Part shown: positions 7,946 through 24,928 of the stretch, piece after piece
Layout of the letters: every line of letters starts with the position of its first letter
Position numbering within the stretch: position 1 is the stretch's first letter
Source: a virus
Lineage: Duplodnaviria; Caudoviricetes
Length of the DNA stretch: 24,928 nt
Virus record (IMG/VR): IMGVR_UViG_3300025848_000176
Span: 1 to 24,928 of that record
Strand: one strand, 5' to 3'
Notes under the pieces: generated by a model
Seen by the model: only the letters and a program-made list of their open reading frames with translations
The model's database searches: none
Told to the model about the DNA's origin: nothing
Position numbers and translations under genes: made by a program

Positions 7946-9541
7946 ATGGCTGGAATTAAAATACATCAATACCCATTAGAGCGCACAAGTATAGGCGATG
8001 AAGATTACTACGACATTGATTACTATACAGGCTCGGGTTATCAATCGGCAAAAATTAAGGGTTCTACGTTAAAAAACGTACTTGGAGCGAACTACATTGA
8101 TATTTCAACCTTTATTTCGGGGTATGATTTAACCAATGTTGATGCTGGGAAATTAATTACTAACTCAAATGCTAATGTAAGGACTTTAGTAATTACAAGC
8201 GGTTTAGCTTTACCAAATAATATGGTAAGTGTTAAGGGTAGGATAGCTATACAACCAGAAACAGGTGTAAATATTACTTTGCCTAATGGTTCAACTATTA
8301 CAGAGCCTACACAGTTTACTTGCGAAGCCGATGAGGTTTATATTTTGCATAAATCAGCATTTACAGGCGACAATTACATTTTAGTTTCCTTAAAAAAATC
8401 CGAAAATATAGGCACAAACGATTTGATAATTTCGGACACTGTAAGAGAATTACAAGTTGCAACAGATGGAACATTCCAAATCGTTACAAATGATGCTAAC
8501 AACTCTGCTATTTTTAAAGTGGGTGAAAATAATAATGAAAGGTTTAGTTTAATAGAATTTAACACGGTTATATTTGATTTAATTAGTAAGTTCCAAAACC
8601 CTGCTATTACAGCTGGTGTAATTGTTGAAGTAAATCCTAATGAGTTTAAATTCATCGTGTTGCCTAATACAAGCAATACATCGGTTTACCATGGATTAAT
8701 AAGTGTAGATGCAAATAAAACAATAATTGAAAAATCAAATGCAGGTAAATTAACATTCAATAGTTCTTTGTCTTCTAACACTTTTGAAGATTTAAGAGCT
8801 ACAAAAAAAGGAATAGAATATAGTGCCGATTATTCTGCTAATTTTTCTGTTCGCAGTTTGGTGGATAAGGGTTATGTTGATAGTAATATTACTGATTACT
8901 ACGATGATGCCGATGTAACACCTTTACCACAAAGAGGAAAATTAAGAGCTTTAGAATACATTGAATTGGTGGATAATCCAACAAGTGAAGAAACCGAAAT
9001 ACAACTAAGAGCCGATAGTATTAAGGATGCTGAGGTAACAAGATTTGGCGAAAATGGTTCGGGTAATGTTGATTTAAAAATCCAAGAAAATAAATTATTA
9101 ACAGGAACTGCTGGGGGTTTTGCAATTGAGTTAAGTTTTGCACAAGAGGGTATTTTAGGATTAGATGTAAATAATGAAGTAAAGGAGTTTGAAGTAGTAG
9201 AAATTTACAACATACTTAAGGAAGAAAGTGTTACAGGCAACAAACAACTTGCATTATTAGATATAAACGGAAATTCTGCAAATGTTAAAGCTAAATTTGA
9301 AATTAGTGCAATAGCAGTTCAAAACACCACCGCCAACGCTGTTACGATTAATATAGGTAGTACGTCTTTAGGCACGGATGTAGTAAATGCTTTTGCATTG
9401 GGAGCGAGTGAAACAAAGAAACTACCTTTGGGCACAACATTTTTTAGCACAACAACAGGACAAAGTTTGTTCATTTCTTCTTCAAGTTGGAATAGTGCAA
9501 ACATAAATATACACGTAACAATTTCAAAGATATGGCAATAG
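7946..9541 (+). CDS. Tail fibre-like protein
   Basis: 531 aa, S/T/N/G-rich. N-terminus MAGIKIHQYP, an internal LVDKGYVD fibre-type motif, and position at the end of the tail module. Confidence 0.6.
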   Translation: MAGIKIHQYPLERTSIGDEDYYDIDYYTGSGYQSAKIKGSTLKNVLGANYIDISTFISGYDLTNVDAGKLITNSNANVRTLVITSGLALPNNMVSVKGRIAIQPETGVNITLPNGSTITEPTQFTCEADEVYILHKSAFTGDNYILVSLKKSENIGTNDLIISDTVRELQVATDGTFQIVTNDANNSAIFKVGENNNERFSLIEFNTVIFDLISKFQNPAITAGVIVEVNPNEFKFIVLPNTSNTSVYHGLISVDANKTIIEKSNAGKLTFNSSLSSNTFEDLRATKKGIEYSADYSANFSVRSLVDKGYVDSNITDYYDDADVTPLPQRGKLRALEYIELVDNPTSEETEIQLRADSIKDAEVTRFGENGSGNVDLKIQENKLLTGTAGGFAIELSFAQEGILGLDVNNEVKEFEVVEIYNILKEESVTGNKQLALLDINGNSANVKAKFEISAIAVQNTTANAVTINIGSTSLGTDVVNAFALGASETKKLPLGTTFFSTTTGQSLFISSSSWNSANINIHVTISKIWQ

Positions 9542-13557: not shown

Positions 13558-13597
13558 ACCCTCCATGCCTCTCATGGAAGCACACTTGGGGGGTTTT
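13558..13597 (+). terminator. GC-rich intergenic hairpin, possible terminator/attenuator
   Basis: ACCCTCCA (13558-13565) can pair with TGGGGGGT (13587-13594), followed by TTT. An alternative helix TCCATG/CATGGA is also possible. Confidence 0.4.
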
Positions 13598-19075: not shown

Positions 19076-19681
19076 ATGGAAAACAAAACAATCTTTGAAA
19101 CGTTAAGTGCTATTAACGTGAACGAAAAAACCGAAAAAAAGAGCGGTTTAACTTATCTTAGCTGGTCTTGGGCGTGGTCTGAATTTCAAAAGGTATGTCC
19201 TGAAGCTACCTACTACATTGTTAAAGATACAAGGGGGTTACCCTACTTTGCTGATGAAAGTGGAGCAATGGTGTACACACGTGTTACTGTTGGTAATATT
19301 ATGCACGAAATGTGGTTACCTGTAATGGACGGTGCAAATAGAGCCATGAAATCCACACCTTACACTTACACCACTAAATTCGGCGAAAAAACAGTTGAGG
19401 CTTATACTATGTTTGATATTAACAAAACAATCATGAGATGCTTAACTAAGAATTTAGCAATGTTTGGTTTGGGGATTTATATCTATGCTGGTGAAGATAT
19501 TCCTGAGGGTTACGAAGCACCAGCACCGAAAAAGCCAACACTTGACAAATCAAGATTTAATAGTGCCTTAGATAGTATTAAAAAAGGCACTTACTCGATT
19601 GAAAAGTTAGAAGAAACTTTTGATCTAAGCGAAGCACAAAGAAAGGAATTAAATAAATTTATTAACGAAAAAGCGAAATAA
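19076..19681 (+). CDS. Single-strand annealing protein, Sak3/DUF1071-like
   Basis: EKK.GLTYLSWSWAW, MWLPVMD..N, FDINKTIMRCL.KN.AMFGLG.YIYAGED.P motifs. Confidence 0.88.
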   Translation: MENKTIFETLSAINVNEKTEKKSGLTYLSWSWAWSEFQKVCPEATYYIVKDTRGLPYFADESGAMVYTRVTVGNIMHEMWLPVMDGANRAMKSTPYTYTTKFGEKTVEAYTMFDINKTIMRCLTKNLAMFGLGIYIYAGEDIPEGYEAPAPKKPTLDKSRFNSALDSIKKGTYSIEKLEETFDLSEAQRKELNKFINEKAK

Positions 19682-20304: not shown

Positions 20305-20961
20305 ATGGAACTAAAAGTAAGATGTTCGGAACTTAGCAACTTAATGACTAAGGGCAGAAGCAAAGCCGAGCCACTAGGCGAAACCGCTAAATCATACATA
20401 CAAGAAAAAGCAAAATGCGACTTCTACGGTTTAAAACCTATTTTAGAAAATAAATACTTAAGTAAGGGTATAGCCAACGAGCAAATCGGGATTGACTTAG
20501 TTAACCAAGTTAGATTTATGGATTTCGTGAAAAATACCGATAGAATAGATTTAGGGTGGTTGACTGGCGAATGTGATATTAATGCAGATGACAGGATAAT
20601 CGATATAAAATGCAGCTGGTCATTTGATACATTCCCAGCGTATGAAGAAGAAGCACAAAAATCTGTTAAAAAAGCTGGTTACGATTGGCAAATGAGGGGT
20701 TACATGATGCTTTACAATAAAGAAGTTGCAGAAGTAATATATTGCCTTACTTCAACACCTGATCTTTTGTTGACATCTTGGGATGACTTAACCATGCATA
20801 AGGTGGACCACATAGAAGCCGAAAAACGAATTACAGCGGTTCGAATTGAAAGAGATTTGGAAATAGAAGAGGAAATAAAAAAACAGTATCAAATAGGGAA
20901 TGAATATTATAAAGAGTGTATTAATCAATTAACAACTAAAAACCAAAAATCATGGATTTAA
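20305..20961 (+). CDS. YqaJ/lambda-exonuclease-like PD-(D/E)xK nuclease
   Basis: RCS.L..LM, KG...E, LTGECD....IIDIKCSW and Y.WQ..GYM.L motifs. Lies next to the annealase and SSB. Confidence 0.82.
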   Translation: MELKVRCSELSNLMTKGRSKAEPLGETAKSYIQEKAKCDFYGLKPILENKYLSKGIANEQIGIDLVNQVRFMDFVKNTDRIDLGWLTGECDINADDRIIDIKCSWSFDTFPAYEEEAQKSVKKAGYDWQMRGYMMLYNKEVAEVIYCLTSTPDLLLTSWDDLTMHKVDHIEAEKRITAVRIERDLEIEEEIKKQYQIGNEYYKECINQLTTKNQKSWI

Positions 20962-21289: not shown

Positions 21290-21508
21290 ATGGAAAAGAT
21301 AAAACCAGAGCAATTAATTAACCTGACAAGGGATTGTAAGGAAATTATAAACGATTACATGGCTAAGCATGAGTTAAGCATACACGCGTTTACGAAGCTT
21401 TGCAAATTGAATAGTAACCAGCTTTATTTGTTTTTGAACGATAAACGAGGTTTGAATTTAACAACGATGCAACGTATCGCAGAAATAGTTAGCAAGGAGG
21501 GGGGTTAA
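21290..21508 (+). CDS. XRE/Cro-like HTH protein
   Basis: LSIHAFTKLCKLNSNQLYLFLN.KRGLNL.T..RIA pattern in a 72-aa protein. Confidence 0.7.
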   Translation: MEKIKPEQLINLTRDCKEIINDYMAKHELSIHAFTKLCKLNSNQLYLFLNDKRGLNLTTMQRIAEIVSKEGG

Positions 21509-21518
21509 CCCCTTTTTT
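21494..21518 (+). terminator. Rho-independent terminator
   Basis: AAGGAGGGGGG-TTAA-CCCCTTTTTT, overlapping the HTH stop codon. Confidence 0.65.
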
Positions 21519-21560
21519 GTTAATAAATCTTAATGAAAAATATTTTTATAAACATTGTAG

Positions 21561-21588
21561 TTTATTCAAAATTAATTTATATATTTGT
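21561..21588 (+). promoter_or_regulatory. Conserved 28-bp phage promoter, copy 3
   Basis: TTTATTCAAA-ATTAATTT-ATATATTTGT, with a TTG at 21555-21557. Confidence 0.75.
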
Positions 21589-21620
21589 GTATAGTTATTA
21601 ACAATTAAAATAAAAAGGTT

Positions 21621-21818
21621 ATGTTATACACAAAAGAATTTTACGAAATAATGGATGTTTTTGAAAAAAACGCAAATAAATTAGTATCATTTGGAGCAAT
21701 GGGATTAACTAGAGAAGCGTCAGAAAATTGGACTAATCAGCAATATTATTGCGACGGAAATGTTAACAATGCTTTTAAAATGTTTTTACATGGTGTATCG
21801 TTAGGAAAAATACTATAA
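21621..21818 (+). CDS. Hypothetical protein
   Basis: 65 aa (TKEFYE....FEK; YYCDG.VN.AFKMFL.G), first gene after promoter copy 3. Confidence 0.7.
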   Translation: MLYTKEFYEIMDVFEKNANKLVSFGAMGLTREASENWTNQQYYCDGNVNNAFKMFLHGVSLGKIL

Positions 21819-21829
21819 AAATAAATCTT

Positions 21830-21991
21830 ATGTCAAAAGAAACTAAATTTTTACAAGAATTAGATATTATAGATATCAATTGCAATGATTTAATAATAAA
21901 ACAAAAAAACGGTAGAGAGATAAGTTTATGCACATTACTGAAAACTTATCTTGAAGAAAACACATTGCAAAATGGTAAATCATGCGCCTAA
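21830..21991 (+). CDS. Unannotated 53-aa hypothetical protein
   Basis: My translation is MSKETKFLQELDIIDINCNDLIIKQKNGREISLCTLLKTYLEENTLQNGKSCA*. It fills the gap between neighbouring genes. Confidence 0.55.
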   Translation: MSKETKFLQELDIIDINCNDLIIKQKNGREISLCTLLKTYLEENTLQNGKSCA

Positions 21992-22191
21992 TCCTCCTAC
22001 TCCTACCAATGCAACTAATTACGCACCATTTACCAAGTGTAAGGGTGCAAAAGTTGGAATACTCGGAACACATAAGGCAGAAGCTAAATTCAATCCTAGA
22101 AATACCAGAGGGGAGAAATTACTGGGAGAAAGAATTTAAGACTGTTATTTACGAAAATAAACTTAAACAATACTTACAACATGGAAATTGA
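21982..22191 (+). CDS. Hypothetical protein with short hydrophobic N-terminus
   Basis: 69 aa (MRLILLLLPMQL), overlapping both neighbours by about 10 nt. Confidence 0.5.
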   Translation: MRLILLLLPMQLITHHLPSVRVQKLEYSEHIRQKLNSILEIPEGRNYWEKEFKTVIYENKLKQYLQHGN

Positions 22192-22552
22192 TTTAAAAAA
22201 AGTAAGAAAAGAAATTAGGAAGTTAAAAAAGTTAGTAACTACTGAAGAGCTAAACAAATTTAATGTTGACGCAATTGAAAATGGGGATTTGCGCGGTTTT
22301 TACACTCAATTAACTGGACACTTTTTTAGTGATCGAGCTCAAAAATTGATTAATGAAAGTGCCACTTTGTTTTACCAAGATAATGGTTTGGGGTTAACTC
22401 CTAGAAATAAAATTATTCCACCAAACTTTATGACTTATCCAAACTCAAGAAACTTTACACTATTGGAAGTTTACATGGCGTATAATCACGATAAAATAAA
22501 CCACATTTTAAAATTTTTAAAGTCGGAAATTAAACAATTAAATATAAAATGA
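22181..22552 (+). CDS. Hypothetical protein
   Basis: 123-aa ORF with an ATGA overlap to the next gene. Confidence 0.7.
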   Translation: MEIDLKKVRKEIRKLKKLVTTEELNKFNVDAIENGDLRGFYTQLTGHFFSDRAQKLINESATLFYQDNGLGLTPRNKIIPPNFMTYPNSRNFTLLEVYMAYNHDKINHILKFLKSEIKQLNIK

Positions 22553-22854
22553 AAGTAGAACTACACGATTACAACATAGGATCACAATCAGGAGATGCAA
22601 CGGTATTGGTTTATGATAATCCAACAGATTTAAATAGCGTTGTTTTCGACGGCACTGTAAATTTTGAATTTAGCGTGGACAAGTACGAAACAGGGGATGG
22701 ATATTTAACACCTATTGAAAATTGGATGGATGTTGAGATTACGGATATCGAATTTTTTGATACTGAAAACCGCAGAATTAAGCCGAAATACGAGATTAAG
22801 GAAGCAATAGAGTATAATTTAATTGAAGAAATAAAAGATAAGGAAAATGAGTAA
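22549..22854 (+). CDS. Hypothetical acidic protein
   Basis: 101-aa translationally coupled ORF. Confidence 0.7.
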   Translation: MKVELHDYNIGSQSGDATVLVYDNPTDLNSVVFDGTVNFEFSVDKYETGDGYLTPIENWMDVEITDIEFFDTENRRIKPKYEIKEAIEYNLIEEIKDKENE

Positions 22855-23197
22855 AGAAGAAAAAGACAATATCACACGTTTAAGCGCATTATGTGCTATA
22901 ACTAGCCTTTATATTAAAGGGTGTAAAAAAACGATACAGGAAGCAAATATACAAGTATTGAAGCAACAGTATAAGTACGACCAGTTAAGCATTCCAAACA
23001 AAAAAGTAATTGATAAGCGAATTCAGGATGCAATGAAAAATTTAAACCTTACAATGGATACAACTACGATAGTTTTAGGTAGGATTGAAAAAAGTATGCG
23101 AAATACGTTAACAGATGAAGTAACAGACGCTTTAATCGACAAACTCGATGCGGTGCTTGATAGTGTTGATTTGGAGGGGGTGTTGAAGAAGAAATAA
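22847..23197 (+). CDS. Hypothetical protein
   Basis: 116-aa translationally coupled ORF. Confidence 0.7.
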   Translation: MSKEEKDNITRLSALCAITSLYIKGCKKTIQEANIQVLKQQYKYDQLSIPNKKVIDKRIQDAMKNLNLTMDTTTIVLGRIEKSMRNTLTDEVTDALIDKLDAVLDSVDLEGVLKKK

Positions 23198-23393
23198 CGA
23201 AGTAAATTAAAAAGATTAGATATGATAAAGCTAAAAACAGAGGTTAATAAAAGTGCGATAATGAAACAATTACGCAAAGAAGCAACTGAAATGTACGATG
23301 CTGCATACGAAGGTGAATATGCAATTGAACAATTTCTATACGGAGCAGAAAGGCTTTTTAATTTATTGCGTTTACCACGTGTTAGCGGTAGTT
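23196..23393. repeat. attC-like site A (degenerate left end, large coding loop)
   Basis: AACGAAGTAAATTAAAAAG (23196-23214) matches the reverse complement of CTTTTTAATTTATTGCGTT (23354-23372) at 17/19 positions, followed by GTTAGCGGTAGTT (23381-23393). Confidence 0.5.
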
Positions 23394-23569
23394 TATCGAT
23401 TGAACAACTTGAAAAAGCTGATATGTGGTATTGTCTACATAAGAATCATGTAAATAAGTTGTACCACTTAGCGGAAAACTCTTTACCACCAACACTTAAT
23501 GAAGATAAAAACAACCCCTCACTTTGGAAAGCAGGACATTGGAAGTGGTACTTAGACAATTACCGCTAA
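23222..23569 (+). CDS. Hypothetical protein spanning the site A/cassette 1 junction
   Basis: 115 aa. Codon 54 is the GTT at 23381 (…LRLPR-VSGS…) and the stop TAA lies inside CGCTAAC. Confidence 0.7.
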   Translation: MIKLKTEVNKSAIMKQLRKEATEMYDAAYEGEYAIEQFLYGAERLFNLLRLPRVSGSLSIEQLEKADMWYCLHKNHVNKLYHLAENSLPPTLNEDKNNPSLWKAGHWKWYLDNYR

Positions 23570-23700
23570 CGTTGACAATAAGAATGTATGGGAATTAGAA
23601 GCAGTAACCTATCCACATACACCTAACTAAATTAAAGGTAAAACTGCACAGTTTGGTACTAACACCCATATATTTTTTATTGTGTGTTATAGCTAGTTAA
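23558..23700. repeat. attC-like site B
   Basis: AATTACCGCTAAC (23558-23570), arm CAATAAGAATGTATGGG (23576-23592) pairing imperfectly with CCCATATATTTTTTATTG (23665-23682), then GTTATAGC (23686-23693). Confidence 0.65.
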
Positions 23701-23710
23701 TTTTTATGTT

Positions 23711-23911
23711 ATGAAACTTTATACTGAAGAACAATTATTTGATATTTGTCAATCTGTATCAGAAAAAATGTGTGCTAATTCTTTACCACGAGAAAGTGTG
23801 ATTGATAAATGTATGTATTACGGACACTCTAAAATTGAAATAGATATTGATACAATACAGAAGTTAATGGAAGATGATGATGTTGATGTTATAAAGGTTG
23901 CTGTCGTTTAA
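23711..23911 (+). CDS. Hypothetical protein, cargo of cassette 2
   Basis: 66-aa ORF bracketed by GTTATAGCTAGTTAA (23686-23700) and TTAATTGGCTATAAC (23908-23922). Confidence 0.7.
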   Translation: MKLYTEEQLFDICQSVSEKMCANSLPRESVIDKCMYYGHSKIEIDIDTIQKLMEDDDVDVIKVAVV

Positions 23912-23914
23912 TTG

Positions 23915-23996
23915 GCTATAACGTATGGTGCTTTGCTTCAGTTGTGCCTATGCGGTGCGTATGTTCGGCACAATTGAGCAAAACACTTGTTATAGC
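23915..23996. repeat. attC-like site C
   Basis: GCTATAAC (23915-23922) and GTTATAGC (23989-23996) are perfectly complementary. Inner arms GTGCTTTGCTTCAGTTGTGCC (23928-23948) and GGCACAATTGAGCAAAACAC (23967-23986) pair with one extra base. Confidence 0.7.
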
Positions 23997-24022
23997 ACGT
24001 TGTTTAATTAAAAAAATATAAT

Positions 24023-24913
24023 ATGAGAATAGAAGAAAATGGTAAAATGATTACAGATTGGTTAAAAAAAAACGGTAATCCTGCAATTGAAAAACAAGTT
24101 GAAAGAGAATTAGAAAATATGTTTAAAAATAAAATATTTAATGAAAATTGTTTAGAAACAATGAATAGAATTCCTGATGATTTCATTGACTTGACAGTTA
24201 CTTCGCCACCATACGACAATTTAAGAACTTACAATGGGTATAGCTTTGACTTTGAAAGTATAGCAAAAGAACTTTATAGAGTAACAAAACAAGGTGGTGT
24301 AGTTGTTTGGATTGTTGGTGATTCAACTATTAAAGGAAGTGAAACAGGAACAAGTTTTAAACAAGCATTGTTTTTTATGGAATGTGGCTTTAATTTACAT
24401 GACACTATGATTTGGATAAAACCAGACCCAATACCATTGACACATAATAGATATGAACAATCTTTTGAATATATGTTTGTGTTAAGTAAAGGCAAACCTA
24501 AAACTTTTAATCCTATAAAAGTAAAAACAAAATATGGTGGTAAAGTAGAAAATATGAAAAATTGGAGTAGTAAAGATAAAAGCCAAGCAAAAAGAATTAG
24601 AGATGAAGATATAATTAGAAAAGAATTTAGAATAGATTATAATAATTGGAATATAAGTGTTAATGATGGTGTTAAAGTAAAACATCCTGCAAAATTCCCA
24701 GAAGGATTATGTGAAAGACATATATTATCTTGGTCTAATGAAAATGATTTAGTTTATGATTGCTTTATGGGAAGTGGTACAGTAGCAAAAATGAGTATTT
24801 TAAATAAACGTAATTGGATAGGTAGTGAAATATCTTTTGAATATTGCGAGATTATTAATGAACGAATAAAAAAAACGTTGGAAGAAAAAAGAAAAGAAAA
24901 AGATTTAACGTAG
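24023..24913 (+). CDS. DNA amino-methyltransferase (N4-C/N6-A), beta class
   Basis: Motif IV TSPPY precedes HPAKFP and motif I DCFMGSGT, followed by IGSEIS.EYC. This is the beta-group motif order. Confidence 0.92.
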   Translation: MRIEENGKMITDWLKKNGNPAIEKQVERELENMFKNKIFNENCLETMNRIPDDFIDLTVTSPPYDNLRTYNGYSFDFESIAKELYRVTKQGGVVVWIVGDSTIKGSETGTSFKQALFFMECGFNLHDTMIWIKPDPIPLTHNRYEQSFEYMFVLSKGKPKTFNPIKVKTKYGGKVENMKNWSSKDKSQAKRIRDEDIIRKEFRIDYNNWNISVNDGVKVKHPAKFPEGLCERHILSWSNENDLVYDCFMGSGTVAKMSILNKRNWIGSEISFEYCEIINERIKKTLEEKRKEKDLT

Positions 24914-24928
24914 AAAACTCTATTCGGA

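Follow-up and report, generated by a model that had tools for sequence, protein, structure and literature searches.

The array and its features

The DNA examined here, a stretch of 24,928 nucleotides (nt) from IMG/VR virus record IMGVR_UViG_3300025848_000176 (hereafter the window), ends in an array of three consecutive small genes that follow a fixed anchor gene and are separated by inverted-repeat elements, each framed by a TAAC and a GTTA box. An earlier note, made from the sequence alone, had described this array as integron-like and had distinguished three such elements, A, B and C. We found TAAC boxes at 23195, 23567 and 23919 (+) and GTTA boxes at 23381, 23686 and 23989 (+), as had been claimed for hairpins B and C, while element A proved not to be an intact hairpin site (Table 1). 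A strict site detector (TAAC-G, a stem and then A-N5-T-GTTA, with G.T pairs scored) recognized B and C only in the window and found 0 sites in 60 window shuffles; a first, loose hairpin scan was too noisy and was left unused. Stop codons indeed fall in or next to the TAAC box, namely within its TAA in the case of the anchor gene and gene 1, and 11 nt before the box end in the case of gene 2.

The self-complementary cassette ends were reproduced too (12/13 for cassette 1 and 13/15 for cassette 2). Among 1,360 GTTA..TAAC pairs lying 50-1500 nt apart in the window, the ends of cassette 1 are the sole 12/13 match, and those of cassette 2 (23686-23922) amount to 11/13, a score of 11 being reached by 4 of the 1,360 pairs. 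All three end mismatches in these two cassettes are G.T pairs on the + strand.

Table 1. Positions of the array features in the window and of the terminal-site repeat in two relatives.
Feature	Position	Strand	Description
Anchor gene	22847..23197	+	116 amino acids (aa), no family; its stop is formed by TAA in the first TAAC; fixed left array border
Element A	23195..23384	+	damaged hairpin site; 182 nt between TAAC and GTTA; contains the start of gene 1
Gene 1	23222..23569	+	115 aa; starts inside A, runs through GTTA, stops in the TAAC of B
Cassette 1 cargo	23381-23570	+	self-complementary ends
Hairpin site B	23567..23689	+	115 nt between boxes; head of cassette 2
Cassette 2 (proposed moving unit)	23571..23922	+	hairpin B and gene 2, closing at TAAC
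Gene 2, open reading frame	23711-23911	+	66 aa, in cassette 2
Hairpin site C	23919..23992	+	66 nt between boxes; head of cassette 3
Cassette 3 methyltransferase gene	24023..24913	+	N6/N4 DNA methyltransferase, PF01555, E 2e-45
Start of right array border	24914..24928	+	placed by comparison with L001
Terminal-site inverted repeat	L010 1081-1125; L012 741-786		

Element A has the right end typical of this family of sites and a left arm that lacks the spacer of 5-7 nt and the first stem (arms 23196-23214 and 23354-23372). Its folding is no better than chance (z -0.41, minus strand only). No intact relative of it was found, a near-identical contig being the only match; its junction with the anchor gene is bridged by a contig from an independent study (X4 record 10).

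Neither a family nor a reliable fold was obtained for genes 1 and 2. The other genes of the window comprise late-type genes and those for DnaB, NinG, Sak and an exonuclease. Because hairpin C matches 41 records of cultured Flavobacterium phages, we infer a host among the Bacteroidota; the best-matching sequencing runs are freshwater metagenomes. An intergenic G+C-rich stretch at 13559-13594 gives a weak Rfam match to abiF RNA (34.3 bits, gathering score 37, E 0.008).

The same locus is empty, filled or reshuffled in relatives

The anchor gene, used as a query, retrieved 13 viral loci in which it is constant and the sequence after its TAAC varies. Two of them, L010 and L011, are empty, with the anchor TAAC directly joined to ACCCATGTTAACG. 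Five others (L002, L003, L004, L012 and L013) hold 2-4 different hairpin-gene units, flanked by that TAAC and by one and the same right-hand site, and L002 equals L003 plus one unit that has TAAC on both sides and adjoins that site. In L008 and L009 the right-hand site is absent, the whole insert of about 45 nt being missing; L008 also shows a hybrid hairpin, in L006 the hairpin is without its left half, and L005 and L007 terminate at or just past the anchor. The idea of a site-specific gene-cassette array in a phage of Bacteroidota type holds; relatives carry the locus in empty, filled and reshuffled form.

L001 is the window's own array (identity at 8,081/8,082 bases) and extends beyond it. 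There, cassette 3 closes at the equivalent of 24950-24953, on TATTACTGACAAC, which does not match the start of the cassette, and a short, hairpin-free, attI-like site (ACCCCCG TTAACG) follows. The earlier note had predicted that a complementary end and a further hairpin would come after the methyltransferase gene; both are absent. Cassette 3 is likely a chimera of two cassettes, because its ends mismatch and the other cassettes sharing its 3' end have a different start in 3/3 cases.

Three details of the methyltransferase gene should be mentioned. The window has T at 24911 where L001 has C, which places its stop nine codons before that of L001; runs X1 and X2 carry the L001 letter, and the T may be a variant or a contig-end error. 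About 35 extra N-terminal residues (24023-24130) are possibly a remnant of another cassette's gene. The first 45 residues have no relative among the loci compared.

The terminal site of most relatives forms a small, symmetric inverted repeat, composed of TAAC, 6 nt, GTTAACGA, a loop, TCGTTAAC, 5 nt and GTTA, of which L001 and L006 retain the left half only. The 63 and 70 kb relatives bear a second array right after a serine resolvase gene (L006 4908-5560; L008 8484-9136), with different cassettes and the same terminal site. The serine resolvase was considered as the general enzyme of these arrays and rejected, as it is absent from two 34 kb relatives and from the window.

The moving unit appears to be a hairpin with its downstream gene

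Stretches of 9 kb from each of six cultured Flavobacterium phages were compared for breakpoints between near-identical blocks; not all of these breakpoints are independent events. Of 37 distinct breakpoints, 25 lie at TAAC, where TAAC windows cover 4.3% of positions; the remaining ones comprise 3 at GTTA (windows covering 3.2% of positions), 5 inside hairpins and 4 elsewhere. Partner sites have only about 5-9 nt in common. The earlier note had placed the crossover at the + strand G/TT, with each gene travelling together with the hairpin that follows it. Gain, loss and reordering in the relatives break instead mainly at the + strand TAAC.

Cargos shared between arrays tell the same story. Among 585 units from 147 loci we found 59 cargo-sharing pairs, 46 in the same context and 13 discordant; in the latter, the upstream hairpin was kept in 10 and both hairpins were changed in 3, and in 0 was the downstream hairpin alone kept. 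Cassette 2 is met elsewhere as such a unit: contigs in runs X7 and X10, which come from two other studies, match L001 6713-7078 and diverge 2 nt past the closing TAAC. Since the breaks fall at the + strand TAAC, which reads G/TTA on the minus strand, a hairpin moves together with the gene that lies downstream, and the entry site would be situated at the right end of the array.

Could the polarity of an ordinary integron nevertheless apply? The self-complementary ends fit both polarities, some cargos have changed both flanking hairpins, and 3/37 breakpoints do lie at GTTA. The last figure, however, is close to the 3.2% of positions covered. Moreover, the downstream hairpin alone is retained in 0/13 discordant pairs, arrays start with a hairpin and finish without one, and the end and hairpin expected past the methyltransferase gene are missing. 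We therefore find the G/TT polarity barely credible and consider it refuted as the principal route, although it may operate at a minor level by way of the other strand.

A second possibility is that hairpins are merely recurring boundary sequences and that a phage annealing system shuffles genes by short-homology recombination. The window does encode Sak (19076-19681) and the exonuclease (20305-20961), 5/37 breakpoints lie inside hairpins, and both the hybrid hairpin of L008 and the chimeric appearance of cassette 3 would suit such a process. It leaves unexplained, though, the cassette-specific complementary ends, the terminal site, a fixed TAAC breakpoint with fewer than 10 nt in common, and the link to one recombinase family (53/54 loci, see below). 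As a general explanation it is thus very improbable, and annealing recombination likely accounts for minority events only.

Two further observations concern cassettes themselves. In L286 and L287 (both at 2501-2695) gene 2 occurs as an ordinary operon gene, with 74-75% protein identity and neither hairpin nor matching ends; the DNA similarity to cassette 2 runs from the ATG to near the gene end, possibly a view of how phage genes become cassettes. In the cultured siblings L335 and L337, compared to L336 and L340, four letters differ after the GTTA that starts one shared cargo, and the ends of this cargo match in two phages and mismatch in two. A search of 8 runs for the joints expected of excised circles, made on contigs rather than reads, revealed none, a result that speaks neither for nor against circles.

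Structure is better conserved than sequence in the sites

Sequence conservation of the sites is limited to TAAC-G and A-N5-T-GTTA. The stem begins 4-6 nt after TAAC and 1-2 nt before GTTA, and stems are retained while sequence and loop length (40-210 nt) vary, so that the claim of structural rather than sequence conservation is upheld. Hairpin C folds well beyond shuffles (z -4.75 on the + and -3.95 on the - strand); hairpin B as a whole does not (z -0.78), having a good basal stem and a long loop. In 168 segments, end complementarity averages 5.8 of 8 within a cargo vs 2.8 of 8 across a hairpin.

The detector defines the TAAC-G strand by the G that follows TAAC, and what the counts given here examine is how this strand relates to genes and enzyme, not whether it exists. 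A T precedes GTTA in 98% of 592 hairpins and makes a G.T pair on that strand. Similarly, G stands opposite T at +10 in 279/324 phage and 30/40 bacterial cassettes, with the G.T again on the TAAC-G strand in both, which argues for folded DNA over messenger RNA (mRNA) structure.

A check against Rfam, which had been proposed, returned nothing relevant: Rfam 15 covariance models left the array without a match at E <=5, a scan of 7 phage loci gave one weak miRNA match (E 0.67), and 6 bacterial loci plus 1 phage locus gave none at gathering score. The Flavo-1 RNA motif, considered as a lead, was dropped, since it did not match the hairpins and a literature search for it was empty. No intrinsic terminator (short G+C stem with a T run) was found in 21400-24928, and sigma-70-like promoters are at chance level (22 vs 18).

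A tyrosine recombinase family adjoins such arrays in other phages

As had been noticed, the phage carries no recombinase in the part seen: there is none among the 37 window proteins scanned. Searches of 5 close relatives, 4 of which are >=90% complete, gave no PF00589 match either, and the same is true of 5 cultured array-bearing phages. The suggestion to search for tyrosine recombinases was thus fruitless within this phage group and productive outside it, in other phages and in Bacteroidota genomes, where one family adjoins such arrays.

Among 50 phage records from 124 loci with the hairpin motif, 9 contain a tyrosine recombinase, and 8 of these belong to one family of 267-289 aa, encoded directly after the array on the same strand. 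When loci were fetched by the recombinase alone and the best 80 of 398 relatives were analysed, sites on the strand of the enzyme gene numbered 394 upstream vs 7 downstream, and those on the other strand 0 and 2, respectively. A site lies <=2 kb upstream of the gene in 53/54 loci with enough DNA, and downstream in 0/74.

The closing sequence of the last cassette beside the recombinase is TAAC-N5-TATAT, which lies 33-94 nt upstream of where the enzyme match starts, and terminal sites have T at +7 in 93%. At integrase-distant ends TWWACG occurs in 10/43, vs a background of 0.9%, a pattern that the end of this phage's array fits loosely. Hairpins B and C have kin, at 88% identity, in two integrase-adjacent arrays: hairpin B is 88% identical to a hairpin of L225 and hairpin C has arms identical to those of one in L226, each joined there to another gene.

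The recombinase consists of an N-terminal Phage_int_SAM_4 domain and a Phage_integrase domain. On the integron-integrase model TIGR02249 (cut-off 265) the linked phage enzymes score 136-168 bits, 8/8 below the cut-off; the best-scoring model is that of archaeal XerA (NF040815, 178-206 bits, cut-off 220), and all NCBIfam scores stay under cut-off. PDB 4A8E is likewise the best structure. Aligned to 2A3V, the enzyme has 33 residues at the insertion, where VchIntIA has 81, i.e. about 48 fewer. Among 50,697 phage records the recombinase had no match at E 1e-40. A quick enzyme tree, midpoint-rooted and without IntI or Xer outgroups, puts 14 phage enzymes on one side of a branch (support 88); origin was not read from it.

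Because this phage group has no such recombinase gene, the enzyme would be supplied in trans, from the host or from a co-infecting phage.

Bacterial counterparts carry the genes in the opposite direction

A profile of the recombinase (E up to 1e-62) matched 40/121 genomes of the phylum and 37/61 of the genus of a Flavobacterium genome. In the bacterial genomes a second and weaker match is present as well (E of about 1e-43 to 1e-47), likely their Xer. We fetched 45 bacterial regions, i.e. 40 of 49 profile hits and 5 others, 44 of which yielded the frame. Sites lie downstream on the opposite strand in 25 of the 44 loci and upstream on the same strand in 10, and the other two combinations of position and strand have 0 sites. 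Many chromosomal enzymes have an N-terminal extension of about 70-130 aa that is missing in the phage enzymes. One chromosomal array, L289 (G057:C1:3781000-3797000), lies downstream of a 384 aa recombinase relative and contains 10 sites, 148-216 nt in length.

Genes lie opposite the TAAC-G strand in 46/48 bacterial segments and on it in 154/168 phage segments. By this comparison, phage arrays appear reversed in gene direction relative to the bacterial ones.

These data also bear on another scenario, in which the recombinase acts on double-stranded TAAC cores in an Xer-like manner and the hairpins work in RNA, at translation start or in processing. The enzyme does score best on the archaeal XerA model and lacks the IntI insertion; a G.T pair of the coding strand would correspond to G.U in mRNA; and the longest open reading frame starts inside the hairpin in 200/543 units. 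On the other hand, bacterial arrays have the same G.T polarity on the non-coding strand, partner sites have no more than about 5-9 nt in common, and stems are kept in spite of varying sequence and loop length. We consider this scenario unlikely.

Comparison with integrons, CALINs and Xer systems

The resemblance to integrons is considerable. It includes a tyrosine recombinase with the same N-terminal domain, a simple entry site adjoining the enzyme gene in integrase-bearing arrays, cassettes with complementary ends that are exchanged as units at an AAC/GTT core, and structure-conserved sites with G after AAC on the putative cut strand, a feature that marks the R' box in most attC sites (PMC2727003). 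An attI-type simple site at the array end is indicated by the empty sites and by the constant hairpin-free end, and its role would be that of an entry site.

The differences are equally clear. The enzyme, about 48 residues short at the VchIntIA insertion, is not an IntI, and no integrase gene stands beside this array, the enzyme adjacent in other phages being a non-IntI one. The geometry is not that of attC, with spacers of 4-6 vs 1-2 nt and cores other than RYYYAAC/GTTRRRY. In phages the genes lie on the putative cut strand, the hairpin heads its gene and the entry site would be at the far end of the transcript; the integron arrangement, in which attC follows its gene on the top strand, is seen in the bacterial arrays and reversed in the phage ones. 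Moreover, 25/44 bacterial loci, unlike integrons, have the array in tandem after the enzyme gene. The array is real, active-looking and integron-like with reversed polarity, and it falls outside the integron family by enzyme, site geometry and gene direction.

Might these be ordinary attC sites, forming an attC cluster that has no integron integrase (CALIN) and served by the classical IntI of some host? This phage does have a site cluster without an enzyme, and in their AAC-G and GTT cores the sites are similar to the bottom strand of attC. In the available text of Qi et al. 2023 (PMC9892861), HattCI called a hairpin in Polaribacter phage P12002L an attC site (attC1). It is a hairpin of the present family with a methyltransferase cargo, and the authors' bottom strand is the phage coding strand; their attC2 we read as the terminal site of the array. 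In that text P12002L_attC1 is treated as a classical attC, and among the six sites it alone was not recombined by IntI1. A separate enzyme, the TAAC breakpoint, the reversed polarity and a chromosomal counterpart are not described in the parts of the paper available. The low TIGR02249 scores of the adjacent enzymes and the naming of one complete integron in Bacteroidetes proper in the part consulted of the IntegronFinder 2.0 paper (PMC9024848) likewise argue against classical attC sites. With an IntI-type insertion missing from the linked enzyme and IntI1 failing on the one family hairpin tested, we judge a role of classical IntI highly improbable and that assignment of the sites probably mistaken. 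Bacteroidota are nonetheless listed among phyla with integrons (PMC8618304).

The likeness to Xer recombinases (archaeal XerA, XerC/D) lies in the short catalytic domain without the IntI insertion and in the top scores with NF040815 and PDB 4A8E. The linked enzyme is, however, below all cut-offs, and its sites are long variable hairpins, not dif sites, which are 28 bp.

The portions available of PMC8352920 and 10.1101/2024.07.02.601686 hold nothing on these hairpin arrays, and in a literature search that mostly left subscription papers outside its scope the enzyme-site pair, the TAAC breakpoint and the reversed arrays were undescribed. This points to a barely described gene-swapping system common to Bacteroidota bacteria and their phages.

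A proposed mechanism and the evidence against it

We think it probable that the array consists of cassettes, each a hairpin with its downstream gene, that are exchanged at TAAC, likely by a Bacteroidota tyrosine recombinase devoid of the integron-integrase insertion and provided by the host or a co-infecting phage. Comparison of loci shows what the unit is, that it breaks at TAAC, that an entry-like site is fixed at the right end, that hairpins and recombinase are tightly linked in other phages and in bacterial chromosomes, and that the gene direction is reversed in phages. The sites would act as folded single strands. In such a mechanism the coding (+) strand would be the one folded and cut, the equivalent of the attC bottom strand. 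Excision would produce a cassette circle whose matching ends extend the hairpin stem, and insertion would be an exchange at TAAC between two hairpins or between a hairpin and the terminal site. The other strand, used more rarely, would be cut at GTTA, so that hairpins are swapped between genes. Transcription of the array would come from the upstream phage operon, the hairpin often giving the start codon, and methyltransferase cassettes might protect from host restriction; in phage mumin9-2, 4/4 annotated methyltransferase genes of the stretch sit between sites.

Several points weigh against this reading. The window is about 72% of a phage genome; the connection between recombinase and array is one of position; this phage group has a terminal site that differs from the integrase-adjacent consensus; and 9/44 bacterial integrase regions have no site within the fetched DNA. 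As the detector requires TAAC to be followed by G and gives a score to G.T pairs, both the strand label and the strand bias in folding energy (488/567 and 365/371) are partly built in. In the published view, the insertion missing here is essential for integron function (PMC8138268). Finally, 12/37 breakpoints in the cultured phages lie away from TAAC, and the cargo of cassette 1 occurs in L004 (100%) and in L281-L284 flanked on either side by other hairpins, a finding for which the simple unit does not account. Exchange at GTTA or inside hairpins thus occurs as well, because the cassette 1 cargo is found with other hairpins and one X6 contig joins the anchor to this cargo without element A. 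In integrons, each strand targets a different box (PMC2727003), and the same would give the pattern seen here.

Significance

Going further, we lean slightly towards a second integron class native to Bacteroidota, missed by detectors, whose recombinase would work on folded single strands without the IntI insertion. Hosts would carry conventional arrays, and lytic phages mirror-image ones, mostly without the enzyme, which they would borrow in trans; reshuffling of methyltransferase and other cassettes would be fast enough to change the plating efficiency of siblings. In the available text of Nilsson et al. (PMC7077304), the phages reported to plate poorly on LMO6 are without one methyltransferase.

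Complete integrons are considered almost absent from Bacteroidota (PMC9024848, as far as its consulted part goes), yet a third of the sampled genomes carry the recombinase, and an array lies beside it in 35/44 bacterial regions examined. If the enzyme does recombine folded single strands without the supposedly essential insertion, a rule of integron chemistry needs revision. Cultured Flavobacterium phages carry such arrays and differ by whole cassettes, and the locus of the window contributes alleles in empty and filled form and gives access to cultured pairs of phage and host. The mosaicism of phage accessory genes would thereby gain a concrete mechanism with a known breakpoint.

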